Below, piece after piece: positions 5,094 through 41,555 of a stretch of 58,383 bases of DNA. The DNA lies in IMG/VR virus record IMGVR_UViG_3300025018_000173, positions 1 to 58,383 of that record. One strand, 5' to 3'. The DNA is from a virus (lineage: Duplodnaviria; Caudoviricetes). The position numbers were made by a program, and so were the translations under genes. The stretch's first letter is position 1. Every line of letters starts with the position of its first letter. Under the pieces are notes generated by a model that ran no database searches, was not told the DNA's origin, and was given only the letters and a program-made list of their open reading frames with translations.

Positions 5094-6008
5094 TTACGGT
5101 GTGCCGGGCGCCCCGTAGATCGAGCGCGGGTCCATGCACGAAAAGGCGTACCGCTCGTAGGCGAGCACCTTCATGATCTGGTTGTCCATGCCGTCGCCCT
5201 CTTCGATGTCGAGAGGCGTCCGGTCCCAGTGCGTCATGCCCTCGGCGCAGTCCGTGACCAACCACCAAGCGCGCGGATCGCTCAGGTAGTTGTTGAGGCG
5301 ATACCCGTCGGGGATGATCCCCATGGTGTGCATCGCCGCGACGTCGTTGTCGCCCGTGCCGACGCGACCGGTTGTGGTCTTCATCAGGCGCTCTGCCGTG
5401 AACTGCAAACCGTTCGGCACCACGAGGCGCTGGGGCTTGCAGTTGATGCGCAGACCGCGCTCGTCCACGAAGTCGGCGATCTGGATGGTCGCAGCTTCGA
5501 GGGACGTTTCGTTCAGGTCCGCGTTGGCGCCAGCCCGGTTCGAGAACGTGTCACCGTTCTTGAGCGGGTGCGCCGCGTTGACGACCGACACGCCGTCGCC
5601 CGTCTCGGACGTGGTGAACGTGGCGTCGGTGAAGGCCGCGGCGCGGACTTCCTTCGTCTGGACCATCGAACGCTTCAGGGCGCGCGAGTAGCGGGGCACG
5701 AGGTCGAAATACTGATCGTCCTCGACCGCCTCACGGGTGATGACGAAACCCAGTGCGTAGGCTTCCATCGTAACCCGGCCCTTCCACACGTCCGACGCTT
5801 CGTCGAACGTGACGGGTGCACCGGCCTCCTTGCCGGGTGCGAGGCCGAAGCCGCTTTCCATGACGTACTCTTCGTACGCTTTGCGCGAACTGCGCGTCGT
5901 GAAGATGTACCCGTACTGGGGCTCGTAGTCCTTGTATTCGAGCCCGAAGAACTCGATGATGCCCGGCCATAGGTGTTCGGCCAGTGCTGCGCGATTGATA
6001 GCGGCCAT
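5094..6008 (-). CDS. Major capsid protein (HK97 fold)
   Basis: 304 aa: MAAINRAALAEHLWPGIIEFFGLEY...YALGFVITREAVEDDQY...ERYAFSCMDPRSIYG. Strong AGGGAGG RBS. Confidence 0.9.
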   Translation of the reverse strand: MAAINRAALAEHLWPGIIEFFGLEYKDYEPQYGYIFTTRSSRKAYEEYVMESGFGLAPGKEAGAPVTFDEASDVWKGRVTMEAYALGFVITREAVEDDQYFDLVPRYSRALKRSMVQTKEVRAAAFTDATFTTSETGDGVSVVNAAHPLKNGDTFSNRAGANADLNETSLEAATIQIADFVDERGLRINCKPQRLVVPNGLQFTAERLMKTTTGRVGTGDNDVAAMHTMGIIPDGYRLNNYLSDPRAWWLVTDCAEGMTHWDRTPLDIEEGDGMDNQIMKVLAYERYAFSCMDPRSIYGAPGTP

Positions 6009-6601: not shown

Positions 6602-7125
6602 TACCAAGTCTCCTTCTGCATGGCTTTCTGTGCGTTATGCCCGACGTCGCGAACGACCCCGGACCCTCGGTCTTCGTAGCTGGTCGGAAGTTCAACCCCT
6701 CCGCTAACCCCCTGAAGGCGGTTCGCAGCAGCCACGCTCTCCCGCCGCTGGCGCGCGTAGTGTGCTTCGCGCTGGCGGCAGAACTCTTCGGGGATCTTCG
6801 CGAGAACCAGCCCGCCGTGGCGTGCCAGCCCATCGCCCCGTTCGTCTTCATCGACGATCAGGCCGAGATCCTCTGCTTCGGACGTGCGGACAAAGACATA
6901 TCCCTCGCGCCGAGCCATGGTCATGTTGCGGTTGTCGCGCACGCCGTTCACTTCTTCGCGGATCCAGCGGTAGCGATAGCCGTCAATTTCGTCGGGGGTT
7001 TCGAGTTGGGCGACCGGGCTCCACCGGTCAACCGAGGGAGACAGCAGCTTGCTGGTCTCCTTTGCACGGGTGGTCTCTTTTTGCCGCGTGGGGGTGCCGC
7101 GGGCGATCTTGCCGTCTTCGGTCAC
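6601..7125 (-). CDS. Conserved head-module protein
   Basis: GYRYRWIR...REGYVFV...GGLVLAKIPEE motif typical of the gene between scaffold and decoration genes. GTG start at 7125. Confidence 0.65.
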   Translation of the reverse strand: MTEDGKIARGTPTRQKETTRAKETSKLLSPSVDRWSPVAQLETPDEIDGYRYRWIREEVNGVRDNRNMTMARREGYVFVRTSEAEDLGLIVDEDERGDGLARHGGLVLAKIPEEFCRQREAHYARQRRESVAAANRLQGVSGGVELPTSYEDRGSGVVRDVGHNAQKAMQKETW

Positions 7126-7943
7126 TGCATGACCCTCCCTCGTGCTGGATCGGCGGACAGGAAGCCTTTCTCGACGGCTTTCTGGCGGGCTTTGTCCCAC
7201 GCTTCCGGGCTCAGGCCGAAAGCGTCCATGGACCTCTGGATGTCGCGGTCGTAGCGCCGCGGGCTGTTGGTCTGCTGCCCGCCTTCGCCGCGAGCCGAGG
7301 CCGAAGCCGGGGCGCCGGAGAAGCGGTTCGGGAAGCGGGTGCGCATGGCAGCGTCGATGGCGTTGAAATACTCCTTCGACCCGACCGTGTATTGGCCGGC
7401 CTGCCGGATGCTGGCGTCGATCTCGTGGCTGACGCGGGTCATCTCGGGGTCCACGCCGTACCAGCTTGCGTGCCGGTTCTTCCAGTCCTGCAAGTTGGTC
7501 GTGTCCAGTTGCGGCTGGGCGGTTGCGCTCTCGCGCCGCTGGCCACCGTCGCGCCGCTCGCTCTGCTGGATCTGCTGCTTGAAGGCGTCGCGGTCTGCGC
7601 GCTTGCGCTCCGCGGCTGCCGCGCTGTCGGCCAGCGCGCGCTGGGCCTTGGCGATCGTGAGCGGGTCGCCGCTTTCCAGCGCCTCGGACAGCGCCGTCTC
7701 GGCCGAGTTGACCGCCGCCTCGGCTTCGGAGACGCTGCGCTCGACTTGTGCGGTGGCCTGCGCGATCTGGCTCTGCTGCGCGGCGCTCTGGCTCTGCTCG
7801 CGCATAGTGCGCAGGGTCTGGTCAAGCTGGTTGACCCGCGCTTCGAGCGCGCGCTCGCGCTCGCTCATCTGGGGCATCTCGCCCCCGCCGCCGCCGCCCT
7901 CGTTGGGCTGCTCACGAAGTAGTACGAACTTACTGCGCAGCAT
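7122..7943 (-). CDS. Capsid scaffolding protein
   Basis: Coiled-coil, Ala/Gln/Glu rich, with WK.RHASWYG.D.EMT and YFNAID motifs. Position in the head module fits. Confidence 0.65.
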   Translation of the reverse strand: MLRSKFVLLREQPNEGGGGGGEMPQMSERERALEARVNQLDQTLRTMREQSQSAAQQSQIAQATAQVERSVSEAEAAVNSAETALSEALESGDPLTIAKAQRALADSAAAAERKRADRDAFKQQIQQSERRDGGQRRESATAQPQLDTTNLQDWKNRHASWYGVDPEMTRVSHEIDASIRQAGQYTVGSKEYFNAIDAAMRTRFPNRFSGAPASASARGEGGQQTNSPRRYDRDIQRSMDAFGLSPEAWDKARQKAVEKGFLSADPARGRVMQ

Positions 7944-8418
7944 CGTGAGCCTCCTTCTCGATCTGCCAGCGGTCAACCACCGCTATGATGTCAGTGTCTA
8001 CAAGAAAAGCGAGTTCTTGTCCATTTGAGAGACGAAACGCCTTACCTGTGTATTTGCCGAACAGGACCCGGTCTCCGCGCGAGCACCACGCGCCGTTCGG
8101 GAAGCGCGCGTCTTGGGGGTTGTAGGCCACGTCGCCAGTGTCGATGATGATGCCCTGCGGCGAAGCCTTCGTCTTCTGCTCGCGGTACATATCCTCCATG
8201 ATCAGACCGCCTTCGGTCGTGTCGGGCAGTGCTACGATGAGCACCATGATGTTCCAGCCTGCCGGGCGGGGGACGTTCCCGGTGTAGGACATGAACTGCT
8301 CGATCTGAGCCTTGATCTGGTCGGGGGTGACGAAATCATCGGTGTCTGTGACGTGCACGGTTCTGGCCGGCGCGGGGGCGCCGATCTTACCGTAGGTTTT
8401 GGGTATGAGTAGAGACAT
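7930..8418 (-). CDS. Co-chaperonin GroES (Cpn10)-like protein
   Basis: PAGWNIMV...TTEGGLIM...QGIIIDTG...GDRVLFGKYTG...DTDIIAVV matches the GroES pattern. Confidence 0.85.
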   Translation of the reverse strand: MSLLIPKTYGKIGAPAPARTVHVTDTDDFVTPDQIKAQIEQFMSYTGNVPRPAGWNIMVLIVALPDTTEGGLIMEDMYREQKTKASPQGIIIDTGDVAYNPQDARFPNGAWCSRGDRVLFGKYTGKAFRLSNGQELAFLVDTDIIAVVDRWQIEKEAHDAAQ

Positions 8419-8454
8419 CAGTCCTCCAAGGGTTTAGACAGGGGTTGCTGTTTT

Positions 8455-8727
8455 TCAGTCGTATATCGCCACTACAGTGGCTGTGGTGGCTGGGCCCACG
8501 CGCTTGGCCTGTAGCGCCGGCAAAAAGCCAAGCACCACCCCGTCGTAGACGACGTACGTGTCTTGCCCCGGCGGCATTATGTCGAGCCTCGCGCCGCCCG
8601 CGATCGAAGTAACCTGCACGGCGCGCGCCACTTCCGGCAGGTCTGCGTCTGCGGGCGTAATAGCCTCGGCCCTGCGCCCGAACATGAGCGGGTTAGCGTA
8701 TCGCGCGTACTTATCAATATCAGCCAT
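8455..8727 (-). CDS. Head spike base protein, RcGTA Rcc01079-like
   Basis: 90 aa, RRAEAITPADADLPEVARAVQV...FLPALQAKRVGPATTATVVAIY. Resembles the AITPxD...LP.RA.RV..TGTTA..IVAL family pattern. Confidence 0.6.
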   Translation of the reverse strand: MADIDKYARYANPLMFGRRAEAITPADADLPEVARAVQVTSIAGGARLDIMPPGQDTYVVYDGVVLGFLPALQAKRVGPATTATVVAIYD

Positions 8728-8746
8728 GCTAGTGTTCCTCGGGGTT

Positions 8747-9550
8747 TTACTCGGCTGCGAGCCGAAGAGTTTTGTGCTTTTTCTCGGCACGGTCGATGAT
8801 GGCGTCGAAGCCGGGTTGGTCGCGCATGTCCTCGATCCGTCGGATGCGGCGCAGCACAGTGGACGGTACGACGTTCAGATCGCGCGCTAGCTGACGCATG
8901 CTCTGTCCGCCGATCACATGCGCGACGTACAGGTCGATGTTTTCCGACAGCTTGGGATCGCACTCGATGGACTTGACGACGATGCGGTATCCGATGCCCC
9001 ACATCGTTTCGATTTCGTATCGCGATCCCTCGATCTTTTTGCGCATATGGCAAATCTGCACCTTCAGATTGCTGTCGCTGATGTCGTCGTCGTCACGATC
9101 CGCCTCGAGGCGCAGGATCAGCGCGTCCTTGGTGATCTCGGCTCCGTGCGCTGACGCGATGATTAGCCAGATGCGGGCCTGCCGCGACGTGAACCCGAAC
9201 TCGCGCATGACATCAATCTGGCGCTTGGGATCACTGCCAGTTAGTATTTCGATACGTTCGGTCAGATCCTCGACTGACGACACGTCGATGCCGGAGCGGA
9301 TGGTATCGCCCCGACATTCCAGCACAGCATTCAGCAGCAGGCTGACGATCTGCTTGGCTGACCGCGCAGGCCAGCCTTTTTCTGCCTCGATGTCCGTCAA
9401 CGACTTTTCCGTGATGATGACATCATGCAGCACGCGGAACAGGGACGGCGCCAGCTGGAACTGGTTGGGCGCGCGGCTGAACTGGTACGCGGCCATCACC
9501 TGCATATCGGTCAGAAAGCCGCGCTTTTGCATGAGAATGATCGTCCGCAC
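8747..9550 (-). CDS. Three-domain transcription regulator: DUF6456/GafA-C-like + CtrA/OmpR winged helix + GafA-N-like HTH
   Basis: LTDIEAEKGWPARSAKQIV; NLKVQICHMRKKIEGSRYEIETMWGIGY; YVAHVIGGQSMRQLARDLNVVPSTVLRRIRRIEDMRDQP. Confidence 0.75.
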   Translation of the reverse strand: MRTIILMQKRGFLTDMQVMAAYQFSRAPNQFQLAPSLFRVLHDVIITEKSLTDIEAEKGWPARSAKQIVSLLLNAVLECRGDTIRSGIDVSSVEDLTERIEILTGSDPKRQIDVMREFGFTSRQARIWLIIASAHGAEITKDALILRLEADRDDDDISDSNLKVQICHMRKKIEGSRYEIETMWGIGYRIVVKSIECDPKLSENIDLYVAHVIGGQSMRQLARDLNVVPSTVLRRIRRIEDMRDQPGFDAIIDRAEKKHKTLRLAAE

Positions 9551-9554
9551 CCGG

Positions 9555-9785
9555 CTAGCCCGCCATAAATCGCTTGATGATCCGCTTCACCTTGTGCTCG
9601 GCGTAGCGGCTGATTTCCGCAGCCCGGAACGCAGCCGCGTATTCGTGATACGTCGGAAACTGCGTCCCGAGAAGGGCCTCTTCGTGCCTTTGCACCTCTT
9701 GGTGCAGGAAGGCTTCGATCTCGCGCACCATCGCGTCCTTGTTGGGCGCGTTCAGGAGTGCGACTTTGGTATCATGAGGCGGCAT
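9555..9785 (-). CDS. Hypothetical protein
   Basis: 76 aa from ATG 9785, in the operon. Confidence 0.5.
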   Translation of the reverse strand: MPPHDTKVALLNAPNKDAMVREIEAFLHQEVQRHEEALLGTQFPTYHEYAAAFRAAEISRYAEHKVKRIIKRFMAG

Positions 9786-9933
9786 GCTTGCTCGCTTTCC
9801 GCCGCGCAGCCGCATCGGCAGCCTTGGTGTGCTTCACGAACCGCTGCGCCGTGGCCTGCGGGATGCCGACCTTGGACTTCCCCTTGGCCGCTGCGAACAT
9901 GGCCCGGCGCTGCCGCTCACTGACCGCCGGCAT
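9772..9933 (-). CDS. Small basic phage protein
   Basis: MPAVSERQRRAMFAAAKGKSKVGIPQATAQRFV, a type often found near portal genes. ATG overlaps the upstream stop. Confidence 0.6.
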   Translation of the reverse strand: MPAVSERQRRAMFAAAKGKSKVGIPQATAQRFVKHTKAADAAARRKASKHAAS

Positions 9934-10154
9934 CAGCTTTCGGCCTTCTTGGTGGTGCGCTTCGCCTTGGGCTCCGGCTCGGGCGTGGGCTCGGGCGTGG
10001 GCTCCGGCTCGGGTGTGGGCTCCGGCTCGGGCGTGATCTCGTCCACGATGACGCTTGTGGCCTTCGTGCCCGTGATCTTGGTCAGCACGGTGCGATCCGC
10101 GCCGGGGGCCGCGGGGTCGATGCCGAGGTGTGCGTAGAGTTTGGATCGTGCCAT
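9933..10154 (-). CDS. Small protein with Pro-Glu repeats
   Basis: 73 aa with a TPEPEPTPEPEPTPEP tail, coupled to the portal stop. Confidence 0.55.
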   Translation of the reverse strand: MARSKLYAHLGIDPAAPGADRTVLTKITGTKATSVIVDEITPEPEPTPEPEPTPEPTPEPEPKAKRTTKKAES

Positions 10155-12520
10155 CAGCGTGCGCTCCTGTTGGGGTTGGGGTTGGGGTTGTTGTTCTGCG
10201 TCGGGGCTCCGCGTGGCGCGTTTCCTCGAAGCCCGGCAATCAAGAGGCTTGTCGCATTGTCTTCCCGGTTGTTCAGCGTGGCGGTCTCGTTGTCGCCCTT
10301 CTTCTGGCGGCTCTCCATGGCTTCCTTGGCCAGCGTGGTCTCACTGCGGATGCGTTCGACCGCCACCTTGTTCTCGGCGCGGATCTGCTCGATCTGGACC
10401 TTGATGTCCTCTTCGGTCGGACCGGCACGCATCTGCTCGATCTGCGCCATGGTCTCGGCGATCATCGGGGCGATCTGGTACTCGACCTCGGGCGGGATGC
10501 CCTCGGCGAAGGCTTCCATCGGGATGCCCATGGCTGCCGCGACCTGCACCGCCATGTCGAGCGCGAAGTGCTCGGTGATGTGCGCGGCCAGCGCCGCCAT
10601 CGCCATCTCGCCATCCTCGGCCGACACCGGCGCCGTCTGCAAGCCCTTGAGGCTCGCCATGTGCGCGTCGATGTGCGCGGCGTGGTTCTGGGCCGGGCCC
10701 GCCACAATCGGGACGCGCTTCAGTGCGCGCGTGTATTCGGTCAGCGGGTCCGCCGGCTTGGCCTCTTGGGGCTCCGGCAGCAGCAGGTGGTCGATGTCGC
10801 TCGCGCCGATAGCGTTCAGGAAGTCGATCAGCGCCGCGCGCTTGTCCATGACATCCGGGTTGGCCGTCGCCGTATCCAGCTTGACCTGCGCCTCCATCAT
10901 GCGGCGGGCGCGGCTGATCTGCGACGGGTCCATCGCGGGCAGCAGCTTGGTCAGGATCAGGTCTTCGGGCTGAAGCGCGCTGTTCTGCCCGAAGGGCACC
11001 GTCTGGTTGCCGAAGATCTCCCGCATGCGCTGGTGGATCAGGGTCAGTTCGGTCTTGTTGGCCTTGTAGAGCCGACGGTGCACCGCGCTCTGGAACTTGG
11101 TCTGCTCGTCGTACGCCGCCATGGCAGGACCGGGCGCGACCGACGGGCCCATCATGGACGTCAGGTCCGCGGTAGCGATGCCGCCCAGTTCCTTGCCGTT
11201 GACCTCCATGCGGTCCATGAGGGACATGAGACCTTGGTCCGGGCCCTTGAACGGGTGCAGCATGAGGCTGTCCGAGATCGGCCCTGCGGCGGGGCTGTCC
11301 ACGTCCACGAACGACCCCGGAATGACGCGGGTGTTGTCGTCGCGGATCGACATGGTGGACTTCTTGAAGCCCGCCGGGTGGTTCGCCAGATAGGCCGCGT
11401 CCAGCCCCGCCCGCTGCCCGTCGCGCAGCGCCTCGGTCTGGTTCGCCAGCAGCGCGCCCAGCCCGAGGGCGAAGATCGAAGACTTGCCGGGGTGGTACGG
11501 GTAGGCGACGAAGTGCTCGATGCGCCGCTCTTCGGGGTCGCCGTCCACCCAGTTGCGACGGATCGCCAGCACCTGCCCGTTGGCCTTGGCCGTAGTGATC
11601 ACGTAGGGGCGCGACAGGCCCTGCGGATGCGGGTCGTCCTCGAGGAACAGGTTCGCGTGCGTCTCGTACAGCGTGTACGCCTCGTCGCCGTTCAAGTGCG
11701 CGTCGCTGATCCCTTGGATGATGTCGCGCTGCCGGGTGACGGCGTCCTGATCGGCGGTGTCGCCGGTGGCCATATCGACGACCCGATAGATGCCGTTGAC
11801 CATGTACCGGACGAGGTCTGAGGCGTTGACCCGCATACGGTGCGTGATGCGCCCGACCCGCGTGGACTTTGCGTCGTACGAAATGAACAGGTCTTCGAGC
11901 GGAACGTAGTCGGCCCGGACCGGCGCCGACGGCAAGGTCGGATCGACGTAGATCTTGCGGATGCCGACGCCCATGAGCCCGCAGTCGCGCAGGATGAGGT
12001 CCGTGTCTTCCTCGTAGCTGGGCAGCTTGCTGCCGAGGTAGTCGAGGTAGTACGCTTCGACGCGCTTGATGGCCTTCTCGATCGCACGCTCGGCGTCCCC
12101 GCGCTGCTCCTTGTCGAGCCCATCGAGGTCGAACGCGCACACCGCGGTGCAGACCTTTTCGGGCGGCAGCATCTCACTGAGGGCCGTGGATTGGAACCGG
12201 GTCAGCGCAGCCAGCAGCAGGGGGTGGTCCGACGTGTTGGCGCTCTCGTACTCGGTGTCGTCGCTGTCGCTCTCGGGCCCGATGCCCAGCAGCTTCATGG
12301 CGCGCGTGTTCTGCTCTTCCCATTCGCCGCGGCTCGACTTGTCCGCGTCGGCCTTCTGCGTGATGTATCCGCCGATCTCGTCCAGCTTCGCGCGATCCAA
12401 GGACAGCGCGAGGTTCGCGCCGTGCCCGACCGGGCCGGGCTTGACCTCGATCTGCTGCTCTTCGCCGACGATTATGTCGCCCGTCTCTTCATCGCGGCGG
12501 ACAACGGTCTGCACGTTCAT
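10154..12520 (-). CDS. Portal protein (podophage type)
   Basis: 788 aa: HPLLLAALTRFQS.A..E.LP, G.RKIY.DP, QVLAIRRNW, long C-terminal helical barrel. Follows the terminase. Confidence 0.9.
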   Translation of the reverse strand: MNVQTVVRRDEETGDIIVGEEQQIEVKPGPVGHGANLALSLDRAKLDEIGGYITQKADADKSSRGEWEEQNTRAMKLLGIGPESDSDDTEYESANTSDHPLLLAALTRFQSTALSEMLPPEKVCTAVCAFDLDGLDKEQRGDAERAIEKAIKRVEAYYLDYLGSKLPSYEEDTDLILRDCGLMGVGIRKIYVDPTLPSAPVRADYVPLEDLFISYDAKSTRVGRITHRMRVNASDLVRYMVNGIYRVVDMATGDTADQDAVTRQRDIIQGISDAHLNGDEAYTLYETHANLFLEDDPHPQGLSRPYVITTAKANGQVLAIRRNWVDGDPEERRIEHFVAYPYHPGKSSIFALGLGALLANQTEALRDGQRAGLDAAYLANHPAGFKKSTMSIRDDNTRVIPGSFVDVDSPAAGPISDSLMLHPFKGPDQGLMSLMDRMEVNGKELGGIATADLTSMMGPSVAPGPAMAAYDEQTKFQSAVHRRLYKANKTELTLIHQRMREIFGNQTVPFGQNSALQPEDLILTKLLPAMDPSQISRARRMMEAQVKLDTATANPDVMDKRAALIDFLNAIGASDIDHLLLPEPQEAKPADPLTEYTRALKRVPIVAGPAQNHAAHIDAHMASLKGLQTAPVSAEDGEMAMAALAAHITEHFALDMAVQVAAAMGIPMEAFAEGIPPEVEYQIAPMIAETMAQIEQMRAGPTEEDIKVQIEQIRAENKVAVERIRSETTLAKEAMESRQKKGDNETATLNNREDNATSLLIAGLRGNAPRGAPTQNNNPNPNPNRSAR

Positions 12521-13296
12521 CAGTGGACCCTTCGCATGGTTGTACCATAGTAAGGCTTTTTCGGCCTCGTGAACAGGTTGGATTTAAGCGCCGGCGGCAC
12601 GAGTTTCGTGGCTGCCCAGACCGCCCCGGCCGTCGCCATCACGAGGTCATCGTTGTGCCCTTCCATAGCCTCGGGCCGACCCGGTCCGCGCCACACGAAC
12701 GCTCGGAACTCGCCCTCGAGTTCGCGCGTGCCGGGCGCGTCGCGTTCCAGCTTCAGATGGTGCGTCTCGATCTGGATGCGCAGGTTGTCGAGACCGGCCA
12801 GCCGCGGCATGACCATCTTCTTGGCCGCGGCGGTGTCGTCGTTCATGACCCCGATCGTCGTGTACCCGATGACCGGCGTCGAGCGGGACAGCTTCGACCG
12901 CAGGGCCTGCTCGTACCCGTACCCGACGCCGTTGGTCTCCACACAAAACACCGTGCCCATGGACGCCCCCTTGGATTGCAGGCCCTTGAGGTATCGGTTC
13001 AGCCGGAACATCTGCGCGAGCACATCCGCGTACTCGAGTTCTTGGTTCAGGCGCAGCGCCATCTTGATGCGCAGCATGTGCTCGACCGCGAAATCAGGGT
13101 CTTCGGGCTCGCCTTTCTGGTGCTCTTCCCGCGCGAGCAGGACCACGCCAGTGTAATCCTCGCCGTCCGCGGCCGGGTCCAGCGCGACGAAGTGCACGGG
13201 CGGGATCCGCAAGACGAACCCGCGATCTTTCAGGGTCACGCCCGTGTTGAACATGAACCGGGCCTTGTTGGCTTCGCTCTTCGTCGTATTGCTCAC
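12520..13296 (-). CDS. Terminase large subunit, C-terminal nuclease domain (separate gene)
   Basis: FVALDPAADGEDYTG, CVETNGVG and HNDDLVMATA form an RNase H-like acidic triad. It has its own GAGGT RBS and GTG start. Confidence 0.8.
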   Translation of the reverse strand: MSNTTKSEANKARFMFNTGVTLKDRGFVLRIPPVHFVALDPAADGEDYTGVVLLAREEHQKGEPEDPDFAVEHMLRIKMALRLNQELEYADVLAQMFRLNRYLKGLQSKGASMGTVFCVETNGVGYGYEQALRSKLSRSTPVIGYTTIGVMNDDTAAAKKMVMPRLAGLDNLRIQIETHHLKLERDAPGTRELEGEFRAFVWRGPGRPEAMEGHNDDLVMATAGAVWAATKLVPPALKSNLFTRPKKPYYGTTMRRVH

Positions 13297-13305
13297 GGTA
13301 ATACC

Positions 13306-14232
13306 TCAGTCGTAGAGGGTTCGGCGGACCCGGTCCGTGCGGTCGAGTGCTGCGACGAGGTCGTCCCGGTCGGGGGACGGGGCGAACTCGAGGCGGTCGA
13401 TCGCTTCCGTGATCTCAAGGTTCTCGAGGTCGATGTCCTCGCCGCTGAACAGTGCGTTCAAGCTGTCGTAGCCGAAGAAGGCGCCCTCCGGCGACAGGAA
13501 CTGCGCGAGGTATTCCTGCTTGAACCGCAGTTCGCCGAGCGTGATCAGTTCCGCAGCCAAGAAGTCCGCGCCGATGCGCGGACACTGGTGGTGCGTGACC
13601 TGCCGGTGCCAGAACGCTCCTGAAGACCGGCCCTCGACCGCTTCGTAGAAGAAGCCCGCCGGCCCGTTGGGCGACGAGATCATTTGCAGCGCCCCACCGG
13701 TTGCCGCCAGCGACGGAGTGATAACGGCCAGCAGTTCTTCGGCTGCGAAAGCAGCTTCGTCGAGGATGACGAGGTTGGGCGAGAAGCCCCGGCCTGCGTC
13801 GGGATTTTGACAGGGGATGGCAACCGCAGTGGCGCCGTTCGGTAGCGTGATCGACAGCTTGTTCGCTTCGAGCAGGTCACGTTTATCCCAGTGGTGGAGC
13901 ACGGAATTGCGGATCTTCTCGATGAAGTATGCTGCCTGCCGCAGCGATTTGGAAGCGATCAATACCAACACGCCGGGGTTGTAGGTCATGAACCACGCCG
14001 CGAAGCCCGCTGTCACCGTGCTCTTGCCGGACTGCCGGCATGCCGCGATCGCGATGCGCGAGGTCTCCATGGACGCTTCGATATACTCGAGTTGCCACGG
14101 GTCCAGCTTGAAGCCGTTGGTGGTCTCGATGTATTGGACAGCCCCCATGGGTTTCGGGGCGCGCGTCGTGACCGCCGCGCGATTGAGGTTCTCGACTACC
14201 CGATCAACATGGAACTTGAACCTGTTGAACAT
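13306..14232 (-). CDS. Terminase large subunit, N-terminal ATPase domain
   Basis: LDPWQ adenine motif, Walker A CRQSGKST, Walker B VILDEAAF, ISSPNG coupling motif, FKQEYLAQF. Confidence 0.9.
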   Translation of the reverse strand: MFNRFKFHVDRVVENLNRAAVTTRAPKPMGAVQYIETTNGFKLDPWQLEYIEASMETSRIAIAACRQSGKSTVTAGFAAWFMTYNPGVLVLIASKSLRQAAYFIEKIRNSVLHHWDKRDLLEANKLSITLPNGATAVAIPCQNPDAGRGFSPNLVILDEAAFAAEELLAVITPSLAATGGALQMISSPNGPAGFFYEAVEGRSSGAFWHRQVTHHQCPRIGADFLAAELITLGELRFKQEYLAQFLSPEGAFFGYDSLNALFSGEDIDLENLEITEAIDRLEFAPSPDRDDLVAALDRTDRVRRTLYD

Positions 14233-17200
14233 TACTCTGCCGCGACGGCCTCCACTGCGGACTTCGTGAGCGCGTTGATCTGCCGCTGGATCTGGCGCAC
14301 CTGCTCGTTCTTCGCAGCCGCGCTAAGGTTGCTCGCCCGGACCCGTTTCTGCAAGTTCCGCAGTTCGATGACCCGCCGCGAGACCTGCCCCAGCCCGGTC
14401 TTGGCTTGCAGCAGGCGGCGGTTCTCGTCGATGACCTCTTCGTAGAGCGCCTGATCGCCTGTCCGCTGCGCGAACCGCAGTGTGGCAGCGGCTTGGTCGG
14501 CCGCGCGCTTCATCTCGTAGAACTCCGAGGTGAACGCGGTGTTGGACGGGTCAGACTGCGCATAGACCGCGCGCTGGGCCCGGCTCAGGATCTCATCGAC
14601 CGGGCGCAGCAGCCCCGGTACGTTCTGCCCGAGCACCCGGTTCGGCTGCGGCGTGCTGCCTGTGACCGCCGAGGACACGGCGTCTGCCATGGCGAGCACG
14701 TAGCCGCCCATGGGCCCCAGATAGCCGCGTGTCAGGGCCTCGGCCTGCACGGGAGACAGTTCGGTGTCCATGCCCATCATGGCGCCCAGAACGCGCGACA
14801 GCCCGCCGTACGCCGGCTGCGTGGACTTGAGCGCGTCGCTGGTCGTCTCACGGTATCGCTGCGCAGGCTCGAGATACTGCATGCCCAGACTTTCGATGGG
14901 CCGCCCCGTGAAGAAGGACTTGTTCATGCCGACTTCGACGATCGGTTTGAACGCCTGCGGGATCGGGTTCAGCGACAGCGTGCTGGACAGGCCGCGGGCG
15001 ATCGCGCCGCGGGTCTCGTCGCCGCCGTCTTCGCCCGCCAAGCGGCGGTACACACGGGCCGGGACCGTGCCGAACAGCAGCCCGATCTCGAAGCCCTTCG
15101 GGAACCGGAACAGTTCGCCGTTCGGCCCGCGGAAATGGAAGTAGGCGTCCTTCTGCCACTCTTCGAGCGCCTCGTACTCGTCGTCGCCTGCCAGCGCCGC
15201 TTCGAGCAGCACCGCCACGGCGGCCATCATCGTGCCGCGCACGGCCATCTGCACGGCCAGCCTGCGCCGCATGGTCTCCTTGTTCGCGCCCGCGCCTGCG
15301 GCCTGCATGGCGAGGCGATCGAGGCCCTGCACCCGCGCGTTCAGGTACGGGATGGCCGAGACCGCGAGGCGCATGACCGTGTTGCTGCCGCGCGAGGCGT
15401 AGTTCGCCATGAAGGTGGCTTGGAACAGCGCCTCGTCCTTGTCGCCCGTCTCGGCCAGCACCCGGTCGTAGACCGTCCGGCGGTTGCCGAGTTCGGTCTT
15501 GCGCCCGAAGGTCTCCCACTGGTGCCACAGGTCCGTGACCGGTGCGAGCCGCCCCTTCGGCTTCTTGCCGAACCGCTCGGCGAGGATGCGGTCGAGCCGC
15601 TCGTAGTCGTAGAGCGACGCGCTGCCGACGTCCAGATAGCCGTCCTCGCCCTCGGCCCACGTTTCGCGGAAGCCCTTGAAGGTGTCGATGAAGGGCTTGG
15701 CGCCCTTGGCGGGCGACAGCACCCACGCCTGCTGCGTGTCGCGCATGAGGTTGTTCAGCATGAACACCGGGTCGGCCGAGACCGCCTTGGTCAGCAACAG
15801 CTTCGGCTTCTCGAGGATCAGCCGCTCGAACCAGCCGCGTTGCATGGGCTCCATGCCGCGCAGGCTTTCGAGCAGCATGGGCTCGTGGACCTCGAAGAAG
15901 ATCTGCTTGCCATCGACCATGATCGACACTTCACGGCTGCTCTTGGGGGCCTTGTCGCCAACCATGTCCTTGAGCAACTGGATGCTGGCCTTCGTGCCGC
16001 CGGGGCCGTGCAGCAGCGTGTCCATCGGGATGCCGAGGTCTTCCAGCGCGTCCTCGTTGGCCTCGAGCCATTTGCGGTCGAGCATGCCGTCGTAGGTCTT
16101 GGGCATCTGATCGACGTACCGCGTGCCGCCGGGGAACGAGTTGGCGAGGCGGATCGCTTCGCGCGCAGTCGCGTTGCGCCGTGCCTTGTCCAGCATGGCG
16201 TTCATGTTCTTGACCAGCGTCTCCATCGGGTCGAGGACCTGAAGGTCCGACCCGTGCAGGCGGTGCATGCCGTTGGTGCGGGTCTCCATGCCGCGCTGGC
16301 GGCGCACCGTCAGGTTGCCCTGATCGTTGTGTCCTACGATGTCCGGGTCCATGAACCGGCTGAACGGCACGTAGAGCAGTTCCTCCTGCAAGGTGCCGTC
16401 GGGGTCATAGGAGTTCAGCAGCCGATCGACCTCGGACCGGCCGCTGGCCCGCGGCGTCTTACGCAGGATGCCTGCCTCGCCCATCTGCACGATGAAGTTT
16501 CGGTTGTAGGCGATCATGCCCGCCTTGGTCTTCTCGAACAGGGCCTGCTTGTCCGCCGGCAGCGCGTCGAACATATCGTCGATCAGCTTGATGTCCGCAT
16601 CGTTCAGCAGGTAGTCGCGCTCGCCTGCCTTGGCCTTGCGCTCTGCACGGCTTCGCATGGCGACAGACTGCTTTGCGCGCTGGCCGACCAGCCAGTGCGT
16701 AAAGTGGTTCATGAGACCGGCTTCGTTGATCGGGTCCACGATGTCGAGGAAAGCGTCACGCGTGTCGTCGATCAGGAAGTCCTGCCGCGCGGCGTCCCAT
16801 ACCAACTGGCCTTTGGTCAGCGCGCGCTCCATCAGCGGCGCGGTGTTCGTGGTGATCAGGTGCGCCCGCTTCCAGATGCTGTCCATCCCTTCGGCCACAT
16901 CGCCCGTGCGCCCTGCGGCGGCGAGGTCAAGCTGCCGGAAGCCCTCGTACACATCGACCGCGCCTTGCCGGATGCGGGCGCCTGCGCGCAGCATGCGATC
17001 GCGGTTCAGGGTCTTGATGCTCTCGAGCAGGGTCTTGAACAGCCCGAAGAACGACCGCGCTTCCATCGGGTCGTGGATGATCTTGCGGTTCAGCAGCGCA
17101 GCCATGCGCGCGTCCAGATCGGGCGGCAGATCGGGCGTGCGGATCGGCATGGCAGCCGAGAACCGCGGGTCCGAAGCCGTCTGGTAGGACATCCGCCAGT

Positions 17201-20200
17201 CGTCGGCAGGGTTGCGCACCGCCATGTCGCCCGCGAGCGCGGCGTCGAACACATCGTTCACGCTCAAGAACCCGCGTCCCGCAAACCAGTTCGCGAGGCG
17301 GTTGAAGAACTCTCCGATCTTGGCCAACACCGGACCGATCGGGCCGCGGAACGCCGGGTTGTTCGGCTGACGCGCGTACTGCTGAAGCGCGTAGGCTTCC
17401 AGTTCCTCCTGATCAAGCTGCTGGACCGCCTCGGGGTCCATCTCCTTGGCTGCCAGCGCGCGCAGCTTGGGCCCGGCCGCGGCCAGCACGTCCAGTTCCT
17501 TGGGCGTCACGAGGCCCTTGTCGCGCAGGAAGTGCCAGCTTTCGTGCACCGCGGTCACCTCCGCGCTGTGCGGGCCGTTCATGGCCACCGTGACCAGCGA
17601 CTTCACCGGGTCGTAGCTGCCGGAGACCTCCTGTTCAACGGTGGAAAGAGCACCGGAGCGCCGGATGCCCTCTCCACCGGCCCTCAGCGTATCGACGGTT
17701 TTCACATCCGCCTTCCCGCCCGTCATCCGCGCTACGATCTCCGCCACCCCCGTAGCAGAGAGAGTGCGGTTTCCGCGCTTGAAGGACGGCGCCGCCGCAG
17801 CCGAGAACCTCTGTGTGCCGGGAATGATCTCACGCCCGGCAATGTATTTCTTCACGTCGCCTTCGAGTTCGAGCGCCAGCCCGTTATCGACCATGAAGTC
17901 GATGATCGGCGCGATCTCGTCGCGCGACCGGCTGCCGTTGCGCGTCTCGAGGATCTGCGACGCCTTGGACCCGGAGCCGACCTGTTTCAGTTCAAACCCG
18001 CGATCCGCCAGCATGCGCTTCATCTCTGGGTGATCGAGAACGATCTTGGCGATGTTGGCACCCTTGGCCTTGCCGGTGGCGAACCAGATCTGCAACGTCG
18101 GAAACTGGCCCCGGCCCTTCGCCTTGATCAGCCGGAAGTCGATCGAGTTGTCTTGGTTAAGCGCAGACAGGTACTTCTTGTTGTTGAAGGCTGTCGTGAT
18201 CGGCCACTCCATCTCGCGCAGGTAGGCTTCGATCTTGGCCCGTTTGTCCAGCTTGAGCGGCTGCATCTCCTTGAACTTTTCCAGATCGAAGCTGCGCGGC
18301 ATGAGCACGCCGAACACCTTGTCGTCGCTGTTCTTGTAGTTGAACGTGATGATCTCACCGCGGTTGCCCAATTCACTGAAGCCCGCGAGGATGTTGCCCG
18401 TCACCAGCGCGCGCTCTTCGCTGACGGTCTGCGACCGGTAGAACTCGTCCATGACCGCGCTGTTATCGGCGGGCTGGAACGACGCGAGCCCCTGCTTGAT
18501 GCTCGTGAACGGGATGCGCAGCGGGTGCCGCTGCATCGGGGTCTGAAGGAAGACCTGATACGAGTTCAGGGTCAGCGGGTTGGCGTTGGGCGTGCGCAGC
18601 CGGATGTCCGCGATGTACGCCTGATAGACCTCGGCGTCGCTCTCCTTGGTCTCCTTGTAGCTGACCCGCACCGGCGAACCGACGCCGTCGCCGAGTTGCG
18701 ACACGACGTTGTTGAAGGCCGAGAAGAAATCCGCGTTGCGCTCGCGGTTCTTGCGGCTCTCTTCCATGTCGTACTGATACGTGTCGAACTCGCGCTGGGC
18801 GGCGCGCTGCACCGCCACGAGGTCGCGATACCGCTGGGCGAAGTTGCCGTCCTTGTCGAGCGTCTTCTGCGCCGTGGCCCGCTCTTTCTCGGCCCGCTCG
18901 ATGAGCCCTTTCTCCTTTTCGATCGCGGCCGCGTCCTTCTTCTTCTCGGCCGCTTTCAGCTTCTTGCTGTGCTCGAGGATCCGGGCCTCGGCCTTCTTGA
19001 CCGTGTCCGCGATCTTGGCGCTCGCCTCGACCCGCTCGCGAATGTCGGACGCCTTCATGTCGCCGGTCAGCTTGCGCACGTTGTCCGTGGCCTCGGAGAT
19101 CTTGGCCATAGCCGCCGTGGCCTGTTCGCCGAGTTCCCGCTCGCGGTCGAGCGCCGCCTCGCGGGCGTCGCGCACGGCCTTTTCGGTGTCGTCCAGCAGC
19201 CGGGTCTTGTGCTGCATGCCCTGACGCGGCAGTTCGTACCGATCCGTGATCTCGCCGTCGGTCAGCATCTCGAGGATGTCGGCTTGGATTTGAAGCGGGT
19301 CCTTCGGCTTCACGTCGCGAACCACCGTGACCTTCTGGTAGACGGATGGCGCCGAGAAGGCGGTCGTGCCGTCGCGCTGCGCGGTCAGCGTCTCTTCGGC
19401 CACGACGACCGCCTGAAGGTTCTTGTGCTTGATCTCCGTTTTGTCCAGCCCGAGGTCCGACAGGGTCTCTTTGCGCGAGGTGTAGAACTCGGTCAGATCG
19501 CGCACGAACTCCTGCTGGCTGTGGAACGACAGCATCGCCATACGCGACAGCACCCGGCCCACGAAGGCTTCGTCGGATGCGGCCCGTTCCATCTGCTCGT
19601 CGGTCATCTCGCCGAAGCCCAGCGCCTTGCGCAGATCTTCGCGCTCCATCAGCAGCCCGGCCGCAGCCTGCGAGCCCATGCGGTTCAGCAGGTCGGGCGC
19701 GTCGAGGTTCATCGCGCTGTTGTCGTCGGCCGTCGTGTTGGCGTTCAGCGACCGCAGCTTCTTCATCAGCCGGGCCGTGATGCGCGTCTCGGCGGGCGAG
19801 TTGGTCTGCGCCAGCCGGTAAGCCGGCAGCGCGACCTGTCCTGTGCGATGGATCCGGCCCACAAGCTGCATGAACTCGACGATGTCGGCCATGGGCTGCG
19901 CGATGATCATGGTGCGCGGCTTCTGGTCCTTGAACGCGGCGCTGGCGTGCAGCGACACGCCGGTCGAGCCCGACTGGTTCAGGAACAGCACGTCCAGATC
20001 GCCGCCGTTGAAGGCGTCCATGTTTTCGCGGTTGGTCGTCGCGGTGCGCTTGCGCGTCGCGAGTTTTCCGTCCGGGTCGATCATGAGCGATCGCCCGGTC
20101 ATCTCGTCGTACCGGATGCCAGCCTTGGTCAGTTCCGCGCCGATGTAGTCGATCGGTGAGAACGGCACGTCGATCGGCAGCCGGTTGATCATCTCGTTGG

Positions 20201-23200
20201 CCCGCTCGTACAGGATGCGATCCGCGCCCCGCAATTCATCGACCGGAACGACCAGCTTCTTCTCGTTCTTCGTGTTGTTCGGATCGCGGACCGTCACCGT
20301 GCGCGCACGGATCAGTTCAGCGCGCAGGATGTCGCGGAAGCCGAGGCCGGACAGGTCCGCCCCCATCTCGTAGCCCTGATCCTTGACCAGATCGGCCAGC
20401 GCGGCGCCCATGGTGTCCTGCATGCCGATGACGACCTTCTCGCCCGCCCGGACCCGCGCAATGGCGTCCTCGGCGATGGCGCGGCTCTTCATGGCGAACG
20501 TCGCGAGTTCCGTGACGCGCCCCATCTGGGTCGCGTAGTTCGCGCTGCTGACCTTGTATTCGACCTTCGTCTTGCCGTTCTTGGTCGTGACCTTCGTCCA
20601 GCCGTTCTGGTCCGCGAACGCCTTGCCGTACTCGGTGCGCAGCGGCTCGAGGGCGCGACTGATCCCGAATAGCTGCGTGTGCGCGAGCCCCAGCGTGGTT
20701 ACGGCATCCTCTTCGACCGGCACGGTCATCGCCGCGAAGTCCACGCCGGCGAACGACCGGCCGCGGCGGATATACTGCCCGGCCCGCGCGAAGATGCCTG
20801 TCACGATCTGCTGCAACGGCACGCCGCCGGACGCGATGGTGTTGATCAACTGGTGCACGTCGGCGATGGCCTCGCGCATGGCCGTGCGCGGCGCATAGAT
20901 GGCCATGCCCGCGGGCTTCTTGGCGTAGGTGGCCGACGAGAACATGACGCCCTTGGTCTTGTTCACGAGGTCGCGGAAGTAGTTCGCCCGGCCCGGCCCG
21001 ATCGCATCGGTGTCGGGCGTGTCGGGCATCGGCGCGTATTTGGCGTCGCCGGCGGCAAGATGGCTTTCGTCCATGATCAGGAACGTGTTGCCCGCCGCGG
21101 TCAGCGCGCGCACGGCGTCGGCCCGCGGATAGCGGTCTGCGCCGAGCGGCTCGTTGGGATCGCTGCTGGCTTCGCCGAGGTCGTTCAGGTTGTCATACGT
21201 CGTGAAGACCGCGTTGTAGCCATCCGGCAGCCGCCCGGTCCGCTCGATCGTGCCCGGCGTGTTGGTCGGCTGGCCTTTCAGGTGCTTGCCGAACGCCTTG
21301 GTGTAGGCAGCAGGCGTGAGGCTCTGCATCTTTTCGCTGACGAACGGCTCGCCGGTCTCCGGGTCCTTCAATTCGACCGGCAGCTTCAACCCCTGCTGCG
21401 TGAGCAGCGGCGTGATGTTGGCCAGTTCGCCGATGTCGTTCAGATCGCGCAGCATATCCGTGCTAAGCGTGTTGTCCTTCGACACGAAAATCGGGATCAT
21501 GTTGTTGATCCGGGCATAGCGGATCATGCCGGCGACGACGCGGCCCTTGCCGATGCCCGTGTTGTGGTGGATGAGACCCTCGGCCGCGTAGTTGTAGTGG
21601 CCGGGCACTTTCATGTCGAAAAACTCGGCTTCACCCAGCTTTTCGATTGAAACGATCGTATCCCACCCAGTATAGTCACCGAATGAACGAGGATGAGAAA
21701 AAGCTGGTTCGGGGCTGCAATCGCGCCCGCGTCCGCTCGCTTGACCAAGCAGAACTGCGTCGGCTTCTGGAAGGTCAACAACTGACCCTGCAAGAGATTG
21801 CGGATCGTCTTGGCGTGTCGCTCGCGACGGTTGTGCGCCGCAACCAAAAATGGGGCTTGCGGTCGGTTCGAGGCCACGGCTCTCCGGGCGCCAAGAACCA
21901 CTTTTGGCGCGGCGGGTCGAAGATTGTGAAAGGCTACCGGTATCTGTGGCGCCCAGATCACCCACACGCGACAAGGGGCGGTTACGTGCTAGAGCATCGC
22001 TTGGTGATGGAAGCGCATCTCGGGCGGTATCTCGAGCCGACAGAGGTCGTGCATCACGCGGATACCGACCGCCTGAACAACGATCTGTTGAACCTGCACC
22101 TGTTTGCGTCGAACGCTGAGCATCTTCGCTACGAACTGACGGGCGTGACCCCGAACTATTCGCCGGAGGGTCGCCAGCGGATGCAAGAAAACGCCCGGCG
22201 TGTAAACGCGAAACGGGCTGCCACCCGTCAGGGGTCAAAAACCGATGCCCCGCCGTCGCCTCGACCACCCGGCCTTCCGCGGTGGTGATGCGGTAGAGGG
22301 TCTCCACGCCGATCTTGAAGGGCGCCGTGGCCTGCGCCGGCTGCAAGCCCGCGTCCGTCAGCGCCAAGACCGTAATCGGTTTGCCTGCGGCAGCCAGATC
22401 CTCGATGGGCGTGTGCGTGTCGGCGACCGGGTCGTAGATGCGCGTGTGCCCTGCGACGCACTGGTCGCCGAGGATCAGTGCGTTCCCGCCGCTCTCGTAG
22501 TTGTGGATCGACATAGCGAGCGCGTCGATCTGCTCTTTCGAGAAGGGACCGGGGCGCCCGTCGCGCGCCATGATGCGATCGGGCGCGTAGCCCAGCCGGT
22601 CCGCGACGTACAGGTCCAGATCCCCGACCTCGAGTTCGAGGTCTTCCAGCGCGGCGGAGATCGGCTCCTGTAGGTTCGCCTGCACGATGGTCTCTTGCGT
22701 GGGCGGGTATGGGGTCTTCGACCGCGGCTCGTACGGCACCTCGAACGTGGCGCTGCCATCCGGGTTCACACGGTCACTGCCTGCGGGCGGGCCGTACGTC
22801 TCGTCGTAGACCTTCAGCCGGCCATCGCGCATGTCCTTGAACGCTTGGTGCAGGAAGCCGCTCATCTGCGCGATGTCGGACACCGGCATGCGCGCGACGT
22901 CGGTCAGGTAGTCCACGAGGTCCTGCACGGCCCGGTTCCAGTCGGGGAACGGGCGGGTCAACTGATCCTTGACCGCGGCGCCCTGCGTCGTGCCTTCCAT
23001 GGTGCGCAGGAAGGTTTTGAACGCCTTGGCGCGGGACTGGTACTTCTTGTGCGTGACCTGCTGCTGGGTCACGCCGTGCGGCGTGCTGGCCAGTCGGAAC
23101 GCGGGGTCTGCGGCGAACTCCTTGATGAACGCCTGTGCGGCTTTCAGCGCGTTGTCCGACGAAGTCGGGAACGACGGGTCTTCGGCGTCTTCCATGCCGA

Positions 23201-33801: not shown

Positions 33802-34754
33802 GGCGGGTGCGGGCTCCGGAGGTGATGGGCCGAATATGCACGACCGGGCGGGTTCCGTCAAGCGGCACGCGCACCGAGAGCGGTCGGCCGTCGGCGAACG
33901 TCGCATGCACCGAGATCGGCCGCGTTGTGCTGGGCACGGCCGCAAGCACGCGGTTCAGGGCAGAGAGGGGGTCGCTCATTCCGCCCCGCAATCGCAGGGA
34001 CCGGTTGGGTAAGCGGGCGCGTTGTGCACTGCGCAGTCGGATGCGCGCCGAATGGGGGGGGGCGTGCGGCGGGCGAGGAGGAACCGGCGCCCGCCGCAGT
34101 GTCCGATCGCGACGGTTCTGGCCCCGCAATCGGATGGGTTGAGCGCGCGTGGTCGCCGCGCCCGGCAAAACCGCGGTCGGCTGCGGCGGCTGCGGTTTTG
34201 CGGGGGGCGGTGTCGGGTTCGGTCATGTCGGTGCTCTCGGTTGGAATGGGCCAGTGACCGGGACCATGCCACGAGGTCTCGGCGATCGTCAACGGAAAAA
34301 ATCGCCGGGCCCAAACTTTTTGCCGGGTCGGGTCAGCAGGGGTTTTCTGGCGCCGTGAAGTTAAGACATCGAATAAATCGAGACGGTACAATTTTTCGAC
34401 GAAAAGATGGGGAGCGATGATCACAGAAAAAATCCGATCGCGGGGGGTCCAGCCCGATCCGCCGCCTAGCCGCATCGTCTTACCTTCAGCCCAGTCGGCC
34501 CAGTCAACCGCCTCGGCTTCAGGCTCGGCACCTCGCACCTCACCCCGCTGCATCTCGGCACCGGCTGCACCACACCGCTGCATCGGCACCGACAGCACCT
34601 GAGCGACGAGAGACCGCCCCGGCTGGATTGGCTCACGCTGCACGGCTCTGGATTTGGCGGCACAACACCTGCTCGACATGGCCGTGGGACGTAAAGTCCC
34701 AAAACGGCTACATGTTCAAGCACATCTTAACGCACATCTCCGCTCTGTTGAGCG

Positions 34755-34784
34755 CAGATGTGCAGTGAGACGTGCATCACTTTT
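34755..34784. repeat. Left arm of a 30-bp long-range inverted repeat
   Basis: CAGATGTGCAGTGAGACGTGCATCACTTTT. Its reverse complement matches 41526-41555 at 29/30. Confidence 0.9.
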
Positions 34785-34785
34785 T

Positions 34786-35009
34786 GTTCTACTTCTGTTC
34801 GTCAATCATTCTACTATTGTTCACGTTTACCGGTCACTTGCGCCCCCACCGCACCAACTCACGCCATTAACCTTTGCGTCGCCCCCGCTGCACAACTCCT
34901 GCTCTGTTCCCGCTCCGTTCTGCTCTGTTCCCGCTCCGTTCACGGTGTTAAGATGTGCATTAACTTTTGAGCACCACCCCCGCTGCGCGGTCACGTTCAC
35001 CTTGTGTTC
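34786..35009. promoter_or_regulatory. Cluster of alphaproteobacterial LexA (SOS) boxes, GTTC-N7-GTTC
   Basis: Perfect copies at 34786-34800, 34906-34920, 34927-34941 and 34995-35009. One-mismatch copy at 34808-34822. Confidence 0.7.
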
Positions 35010-35135
35010 TAGCCGGTATACCTGCGCCGTCTTACCTTTTATCGCCTCCGGTCACGCTTTACCTCTTGCAATGCGTCTTACCTTTGGTCTATGTATGACC
35101 TACGAACACAAACCCCCAAACCGGAGCGCACGACC

Positions 35136-35663: not shown

Positions 35664-35709
35664 GATTACCGCGCGCCACCCTTGCGGGTGGCGCGCATCA
35701 CCCACACCC

Positions 35710-35747
<38 letters not shown>

Positions 35748-35754
35748 CCCGACC

Positions 35755-35937
35755 ATGAGCGACCCCGGCAAGCCCTATGGCAACGTGACCACGTGGCCAA
35801 CGCTGCGCGCGGCGCGTGCCGATCTTGCCCGCGTCGCGGCGGCGTACCGCTTCCACCCCACCGGCAACGGTTTGGAGCGCATCGCAGACGGCTTTCGCCC
35901 GTCGCATCTTTCGCAGGCTTTGCTACTGACAACGTAA
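35755..35937 (+). CDS. Small early protein
   Basis: 60 aa with the shared CGACC-ATG leader. Confidence 0.45.
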   Translation: MSDPGKPYGNVTTWPTLRAARADLARVAAAYRFHPTGNGLERIADGFRPSHLSQALLLTT

Positions 35938-35966
35938 TACGAACCGCAACGACGAGGACCACGACC

Positions 35967-41526: not shown

Positions 41527-41555
41527 AAAGTGCTGCACGTCTCACTGCACATCTG
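41526..41555. repeat. Right arm of the 30-bp inverted repeat, opening an A-rich non-coding region (to about 41840)
   Basis: AAAAGTGCTGCACGTCTCACTGCACATCTG, followed by a further GCACATCT and an imperfect direct repeat ending AACGATAAA. Confidence 0.9.

Follow-up and report, generated by a model that had tools for sequence, protein, structure and literature searches.

GafA (rcc01865 of Rhodobacter capsulatus, with orthologues in the Rhodobacterales) is described as a direct activator of the R. capsulatus gene transfer agent (GTA) cluster, RcGTA, a role for which its N-terminal DNA-binding domain is required; its residues 87-226 bind omega (PMC9638019). In Caulobacter crescentus, the N- and C-terminal parts of GafA are represented by GafY and GafZ, which form a complex (PMC9632790); GafY is reported to bind both DNA and domains 3-4 of sigma-70, and GafZ to be an anti-terminator (PMC11150451). 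In the roseophage RDJL Phi 1, a gafA homologue, a CtrA-like open reading frame (ORF) without a receiver domain, and a homologue of rcc01866 are described as separate genes (PMC5026251, PMC6363796). GafA, GafYZ, CtrA and these separate roseophage genes are thus already known; new, within the literature searched, are the fused forms of this family, one of which is described here. It is encoded on the minus strand, at 8747-9550, of the viral record IMGVR_UViG_3300025018_000173 (the window, that is, the whole stretch of DNA analysed: a linear virus record from IMG/VR, 58,383 bp long and with an estimated completeness of 78%). As judged from its sequence, this protein, in the following called the regulator, is a three-module, receiver-less, transcription-factor-like protein of the order A-B-C, where A is a helix-turn-helix (HTH) module of the type found at the C-terminus of GafA and GafZ, B a winged helix of the CtrA type, and C an HTH module of the type found at the N-terminus of GafA and GafY.

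The regulator comprises 267 residues and starts with GTG, which is favoured over an ATG six codons downstream by the conserved N-terminus of the homologues. Module A covers residues 1-86 (9293-9550, minus strand, as for all parts of the gene) and is recognized by Pfam DUF6456, by hhalign, and by BLASTP to gp38 of RDJL Phi 1; a helical linker, assigned from the secondary structure of the AlphaFold2 (AF2) model, covers residues 87-117 (9200-9292); module B covers residues 118-193 (8972-9199) and is recognized by Pfam Trans_reg_C, Foldseek, a PDB profile search, a family hidden Markov model (HMM) and a tree; module C covers residues 198-262 (8765-8959) and is recognized by phrog_31864, BLASTP to gp38, hhalign and BFVD. 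The AF2 model, from a 63-row alignment, reaches a mean predicted local distance difference test score (pLDDT) of 93.1 and a predicted template-modelling score of 0.73. In the linker it places helices at residues 90-104 and 108-118, with pLDDT falling to 62 at residues 81-90; in the model, these helices appear to replace the β-sheet that forms the N-terminal part of canonical OmpR-type domains. BFVD contains no full-length structural match to the regulator (best template-modelling (TM) score by query 0.32), and the PDB profile search returns relatives for the winged helix only, none for modules A and C.

The homology of module A to GafA is seen at several levels. In Pfam, residues 32-74 match positions 86-128 of the 136 in DUF6456 (E 3.9e-6, 27.4 bits against a cut-off of 26.3); in hhalign, residues 1-86 match bacterial GafA with 97.5% probability (E 7.6e-12), at the C-terminal columns 312-355 of 371, and an alignment that includes the GafA-like proteins of phages with 99.2% (E 1.3e-19). 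BLASTP aligns residues 33-76 with residues 248-291 of RDJL Phi 1 gp38 (E 9e-6). In a seven-sequence alignment, E55, G59, W60, P61, R63, S64, A65 and K66 are invariant, giving the stretch GWPxRSAK. As to module C, its residues 203-257 are 45% identical to residues 8-62 of gp38 in BLASTP (E 1e-14), and hhalign places it on the GafA N-terminal columns 22-80 with 98.9% probability (E 1.2e-17), and with 99.3% in a second GafA alignment. It carries the signature PSTxLRxxRRxE...RDxP and, in BFVD, structurally matches the DUF6456 protein of RDJL Phi 1 over 56 columns, with a root-mean-square deviation of 1.5. Both ends of the regulator are found, in reversed order, in phrog_31864, whose positions 253-297 match residues 32-76 (E 0.004) and whose positions 10-63 match residues 204-257 (E 2.4e-14); this family is taken, from its 316 positions and its matches rather than from a scan of gp38 itself, to be that of the gafA-like gp38. 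Pfam assigns residues 205-245 to generic HTH families only; the C-terminus is resolved by PHROGs.

What lies between these two ends in GafA is not found in the regulator, which at 267 residues compares with 355-387 for the full-length bacterial GafA proteins in the alignment. DUF6456 is likewise incomplete: positions 86-128 are present in the regulator and 70-131 in its homologue P0002, against all of 1-136 in a bacterial GafA from Pseudosulfitobacter. This comparator (379 residues, full DUF6456 with E 4.7e-62) adjoins lipoyl synthase, and GMP synthase follows two genes from it, beyond an MTTB gene; the bacterial comparators are taken as gafA because this synteny fits the published lipA/gua1 neighbourhood (PMC6363796). 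Module B has no similarity to the GafA alignments (hhalign probability 0.1-0.2%), and the idea that the GafA central region is a degenerate winged helix was rejected for lack of profile similarity.

The preliminary description of this locus, made from the sequence alone, had proposed three DNA-binding modules, and these are borne out with statistics far above chance by Pfam, PHROGs and hhalign; the matches of the termini extend beyond generic HTH families to GafA specifically, in hhalign and PHROGs alike, which also upholds the proposed likeness of the C-terminus to the N-terminal HTH of GafA. The N-terminus had been compared to DUF6456 in both GafA and GafY; the comparison to GafA stands, the one to GafY does not, since the DUF6456 half is described as corresponding to GafZ (PMC9632790). 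The central proposal, that GafA halves in swapped order surround a receiver-less winged helix of the CtrA type, which would thus be independent of phosphorylation, is supported by the profile statistics.

Module B is an OmpR-type winged helix. Residues 120-190 match Pfam Trans_reg_C (E 7.6e-8, 32.8 bits against a cut-off of 26.2), the top PDB matches in Foldseek are the DNA-binding domains of OmpR-family proteins (SaeR, VanR, PmrA; TM by target about 0.6 over 75-80 columns), and the PDB profile search with the regulator returns only domains of this family. Among phage proteins, residues 117-210 match gp37 of RDJL Phi 1 in BLASTP (E 1e-9), and the middle of the regulator matches phrog_31800 (152 positions), which is taken, with gp37 itself left out of the PHROGs scan, to be the family of this receiver-less, ctrA-like protein. 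As had been anticipated, there is no receiver domain: Pfam yields no Response_reg match in the regulator, and the NCBIfam model of CtrA covers it at positions 149-220 of 224 only (19.2 bits against a cut-off of 350). The relationship to CtrA was gauged against the OmpR-family regulators of one Rhodobacterales genome, namely CtrA (427 bits against the same cut-off) and ten others. The family HMM of module B ranks CtrA first of these 11: CtrA scores 56.1 bits, the two runners-up 48.3 and 47.9, and the others 22-40. When 52 phage and 11 host domains are placed in a maximum-likelihood tree, no host regulator other than CtrA falls within the phage clade, whose node is supported at 43% only, and CtrA groups there with gp37 and the homologue P0021 at 92% support. 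The recognition helices of the proteins from Roseobacter phage RDJL3, Paracoccus phage vB_PmaS-R3 and the R. capsulatus phage RcPescado, and that of gp37, nearly match the one of Rhodobacterales CtrA.

Compared with the described systems, the regulator thus shares with GafA two homologous terminal DNA-binding modules, with PSTxLRxxRRxE...RDxP in the DnaA-like HTH and GW(S/P)ARS(G/A)K in the C-terminal HTH of DUF6456, but their order is swapped, the C-terminal module of GafA coming first and the N-terminal one last; about 230 central residues, including the omega-binding region and the first half of DUF6456, are missing and a winged helix stands in their place; and the gene is phage-borne, without lipA/guaA synteny. 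By the published description, module C resembles GafY and module A the end of GafZ; while GafY and GafZ work as separate polypeptides in a complex (PMC9632790), the regulator joins these modules in one chain via a CtrA-type domain. With CtrA it has in common the OmpR-type winged helix, a recognition-helix Cys followed by RKK, and the wing ETxWGxGY, but it lacks receiver domain and phospho-acceptor, and its recognition helix has diverged. The parallel in roseophage, gp38 and gp37 of RDJL Phi 1, consists of the same modules in a phage of the same host order, and gp37 is also receiver-less; there, however, the modules reside in separate genes, gp38 (C..A) followed by gp37 (B), rather than in one fused A-B-C gene. 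The ORFs flanking the regulator (8455-8727 and 9555-9785) show no BLASTP similarity to RDJL Phi 1 gp36, which is taken, unconfirmed, for the rcc01866 homologue. Members of the fused family occur in RDJL3 and vB_PmaS-R3 (full-length) and as gp59 of R. capsulatus phages (two-module), at 35-41% identity; unlike these copies, which lie among early and nucleotide-metabolism genes, the one in the window lies in the head-gene block.

These fused proteins have hitherto passed under general names. The three-module copies of RDJL3 (UFK26651) and vB_PmaS-R3 (AJD83149) are annotated as 'CzcR-like response regulator' or 'transcriptional regulator', and gp59 as 'HTH DNA binding domain protein'; the paper on the R. 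capsulatus phages states that no match to GafA reached its threshold (PMC8601537), and the protein goes undiscussed in the parts consulted of the vB_PmaS-R3 genome paper (PMC4641407). The literature searched yielded no account of the fused form, although the supplementary BLAST tables of the GafA papers might mention such proteins. The preliminary suggestion of an undescribed architecture therefore holds for the fused form, within that literature, but the regulator is not one of a kind, and the separate genes of RDJL Phi 1 were already in print (PMC5026251, PMC6363796).

A search through 1.84 billion representatives yields 460 relatives with E<=1e-3, of which 75 reach E<=1e-10 and 20 reach E<=1e-30. 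The architectures of 152 proteins (the best 150 of the 460 and two near relatives) were assigned with HMMs of the three modules. The most frequent is A-B (50 of 152), followed by B alone (24), C-A, as in GafA (23), and the A-B-C form of the window (18); C alone accounts for 9, A alone and C-B for 7 each, A-B-B and B-B for 5 each, C-A-B for 2, and B-C and C-C-B for one each. Pfam confirms DUF6456 together with Trans_reg_C in a C-A-B protein (P0061) and an A-B-B protein (P0034), and finds both domains in the same order as in the regulator in all five homologues scanned (those of RDJL3, vB_PmaS-R3 and RcPescado, P0002 and P0003). The regulator aligns collinearly and over its full length with the phage A-B(-C) proteins, in alignments of 7 and of 63 sequences. 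Among cultured phages, tblastn matches 28 records, every one with a host in Rhodobacter, Roseobacter or Paracoccus; in RDJL Phi 1 and Phi 2 the match is confined to module C. In bacteria, 151 genomes sampled from the order to which G001 belongs give no hit to the profile at E<=1e-22, with at most 20 candidates scored per genome and no bacterial positive control. By these profile matches, the fused form is part of a sizeable family of shuffled regulators in Rhodobacterales phages.

The distribution of module C offers an explanation for the swapped order. In RcPescado, A-B forms gp59, and module C is a separate small gene, gp68, located 2.5 kb upstream; in two IMG/VR loci, a C-bearing ORF is found 1 kb downstream of A-B. 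Since the modules are thus separate genes in other phages, the apparent circular permutation of GafA is, as far as the sequences reveal, most simply accounted for by adjacent genes having fused, one for the A-B core and a separate one for C. The A-B-C members are scattered among the A-B members in the poorly resolved tree of module B, which hints at repeated gain or loss of module C.

In the window, virion genes occupy the minus strand between base 1 and about 34 kb, and replication genes the plus strand from about 35 kb. The virion region includes the portal (10154-12520, minus strand), the major head protein (5094-6008, minus strand), a large terminase in two ORFs, a Cpn10-like gene, a scaffold-like gene and a polyvalent protein of 4,414 residues. 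Identity of the portal to its counterparts in cultured phages does not exceed 31%, and positions 7000-13000 have no megablast match among cultured phages, so that the phage lineage is new. The regulator sits without gaps among small ORFs downstream of the portal, in the portal-to-capsid block, and is not flanked by lipA or guaA. Together with a 76-residue ORF, a 90-residue ORF and the Cpn10/GroES-like gene, it forms a four-gene block on the minus strand between portal and scaffold (7930-9815), in which the GC content at third codon positions (GC3) is 0.72-0.77, against 0.82-0.91 in the surrounding genes; given this lower GC3, the block was probably acquired separately.

A search of IMG/VR with the single regulator protein as query yields no close relative. 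The nearest relatives come from two otherwise unrelated phage contigs, L097 and L098, whose regulators are 65-67% identical to that of the window; the only other gene shared with them is the 90-residue ORF downstream (8455-8727, minus strand; 65.6% identity in tblastx), which has a weak PHROG match to 'tail fiber' (E 1.7e-5) and no Pfam family. In L097 (10001-11692), a GH108 endolysin lies between the regulator and this ORF. Against L097, the ratio of nonsynonymous to synonymous substitution rates (dN/dS) is 0.26 over 266 codons, with 0.18 in module A, 0.41 in B and 0.17 in C, values that are approximate since dS is near saturation; all three modules are under purifying selection. In each of 8 relatives inspected, the gene is part of a nucleotide-metabolism operon, closes one, or adjoins an endolysin; such a position is a usual one for a regulator that acts before or at the late stage.

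What the regulator does can be approached from the roles of its parent modules. The preliminary description had suggested a late-gene activator or a hijacker of the host CtrA/GTA regulon, and both readings remain conjectural. Both HTH ends of GafA are kept, its omega-binding middle is lost and a receiver-less winged helix is gained; together with the location of the gene in the relatives, this favours an activator. In the reading tentatively preferred here, the regulator may activate late or lysis transcription of the phage independently of any signal, working through the host RNA polymerase. [quoted passage not shown] A predicted complex of the whole regulator with sigma-70 domains 3-4 from a stand-in Rhodobacterales genome scores 0.01 against a mark of 0.32 and is uninformative either way.

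Several observations weigh against such an activator. The central region through which RcGafA binds Rpo-omega (87-226) has no counterpart in the regulator (hhalign 0.1-0.2%). The position of the gene, gapless inside the portal-to-capsid block, implies that the protein would be made with the late genes and not ahead of them. In the tree, two other host regulators are set apart from CtrA and the phage domains by a node of only 43% support; the window protein shares 28% identity with the DNA-binding domain of a Rhodobacterales CtrA and 32% with that of another OmpR-family regulator; and its recognition helix departs from that of CtrA at several positions, as do those of two close relatives. The middle module had been called very close to CtrA, which is true of the family, where the HMM prefers CtrA, but not of the window protein; on these comparisons the label 'CtrA-type' can be justified for the family, but only weakly for this member. 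The canonical CtrA box TTAA-N7-TTAA is absent from the window and from all four related genomes searched (RDJL3, vB_PmaS-R3, RcPescado and RDJL Phi 1), in which one-mismatch sites are no commoner than those of a reversed-pattern control; in the window there is one such site, against none for the control. A further pattern, TTAAG-N4-GCTTSA, which occurs once each in the window, RDJL3, vB_PmaS-R3 and the contig L099, was dropped as derived post hoc; the copies of RDJL3 and vB_PmaS-R3 are inside annotated genes, that of L099 is outside the genes of a rough caller.

The missing CtrA boxes can also be read the other way: with none in five phage genomes, the host genome is left as the place of such boxes, and the regulator could be a hijacker or decoy that binds host promoters controlled by CtrA, GafA or both (motility, pili, GTA, lysis, cell cycle), activating them without the phosphorelay or blocking CtrA as a dominant negative. 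The CtrA-like recognition helices of RDJL3, vB_PmaS-R3, RcPescado and gp37 agree with this, as does the nesting of CtrA among the phage domains with gp37 and P0021; the diverged recognition helix of the window protein does not, and modules A and C, which would be superfluous for a simple decoy, are conserved along with B. On balance this is unlikely, though to be taken seriously. That the protein has no function of its own, being an assembly chimera or a decaying fusion, is scarcely credible: the lower GC3 of its block is in line with it, but the A-B-C order recurs in 18 of the 152 proteins, in two cultured phages and in seven loci (five different sequences) from IMG/VR and one metagenome contig, and both the dN/dS of 0.26 and the pLDDT of 93 argue against it.

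Repeats in the window raise a different prospect, that of an early-to-late repressor, which, made with the head genes, would bind tandem copies of AGATGTGC upstream of the plus-strand replication operons and shut these down or retune them. This motif occurs six times in 58 kb, solely at 34720-34960 and 41547-41565, both non-coding; its tandem copies lie 11-12 nt apart, a spacing typical of OmpR-type tandem binding. A 30-nt element at 34755-34784 recurs inverted at 41526-41555 with 97% identity, and GTGCA-N7-GTGCA, with at most one mismatch, is found 15 times in the window against 5.6 expected, a number reached in none of 100 shuffles. Furthermore, in a six-frame search with the profiles of modules A, B and C, the regulator is the only match in the window. 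Nothing, however, ties AGATGTGC to the regulator: L097, whose regulator is 67% identical, has a different non-coding repeat, CTACGAC, and the stem-loop at 34757-34778, which is followed by a run of T, is picked up in a terminator scan as well. The GATGTGCA copies of L097 lie in coding DNA and lend no support to a link between motif and regulator. A repressor of this kind is therefore rather improbable, and a late or lysis activator is retained as the tentative preference.

The non-coding DNA around these repeats has further features. Two AT-richer control regions, at 34250-35090 and 41526-41820, harbor several repeat families, among them three copies of CTTACCTT; a 21-nt unit is repeated in tandem at 34902-34943, and TTAA-N8-TTAA at 34948-34963 encloses a copy of GATGTGCA. 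In the non-coding stretch 2462-2852 of L097, numerous copies of CTACGAC(G/A), in direct and inverted orientation, surround an AT-rich core, an arrangement that resembles an iteron-type origin or an operator array.

Further features were noted elsewhere in the window. The large terminase (12520-14232, minus strand) appears as an ATPase ORF at 13306-14232 and a nuclease-like ORF at 12520-13296, 9 nt apart. The 4,414-residue ORF of polyvalent virion type (14232-27476, minus strand) contains Pfam LPD38 at residues 4098-4276 and a Strawberry-notch-type helicase (AAA_34 at 1969-2258, Helicase_C_4 at 2458-2611), directly preceded by an Intein_splicing domain (1688-1972); residues 189-557 have a weak PHROG match to N4-type virion RNA polymerase. 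Matches to DNA polymerase are spread over two plus-strand ORFs about 1.9 kb apart, 52460-53692 and 55559-57367; the N-terminal half of the latter is endonuclease-like (PHROG 93), suggesting a polymerase gene interrupted by a mobile element. Short repeats are found at 9941-10050, where tandem units of 12 and 18 nt encode Pro/Glu/Thr-rich repeats in a 73-residue ORF by the portal, at 24362-24531, where similar 12-nt units lie inside the giant ORF, and at 35712-35744, where a (GA)n run of about 33 nt lies within the plus-strand ORF 35682-36557.

The joint control of GTA clusters by CtrA and GafA is a question raised by Hynes et al. (2016) from side-by-side genes in one roseophage. The covalent joining of the modules, in several orders, across no fewer than 75 sequence clusters (50% identity, E<=1e-10) argues that this pairing is old, phage-born and functional. 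A more far-reaching reading, and a doubtful one, is that the fusion shows modules of the GafA and CtrA types to act together on one composite promoter, that the phage triad represents the ancestral control unit of GTAs, with GafA and host CtrA as its domesticated, signal-gated split form, and that the fused protein still recognizes host promoters of GafA and CtrA; if this were true, it could force or block the GTA, motility or lysis programmes of the host without the phosphorelay. Since lytic phages of Rhodobacterales that are amenable to laboratory culture (vB_PmaS-R3, RDJL3 and the R. capsulatus phages) carry members of the family, the targets of the DUF6456 HTH and of the GafY-like HTH are tractable, and the family supplies structural biology with a compact, naturally occurring construct of modules for which no related structure has been solved. 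The finding thus bears on the origin of GTA regulation.

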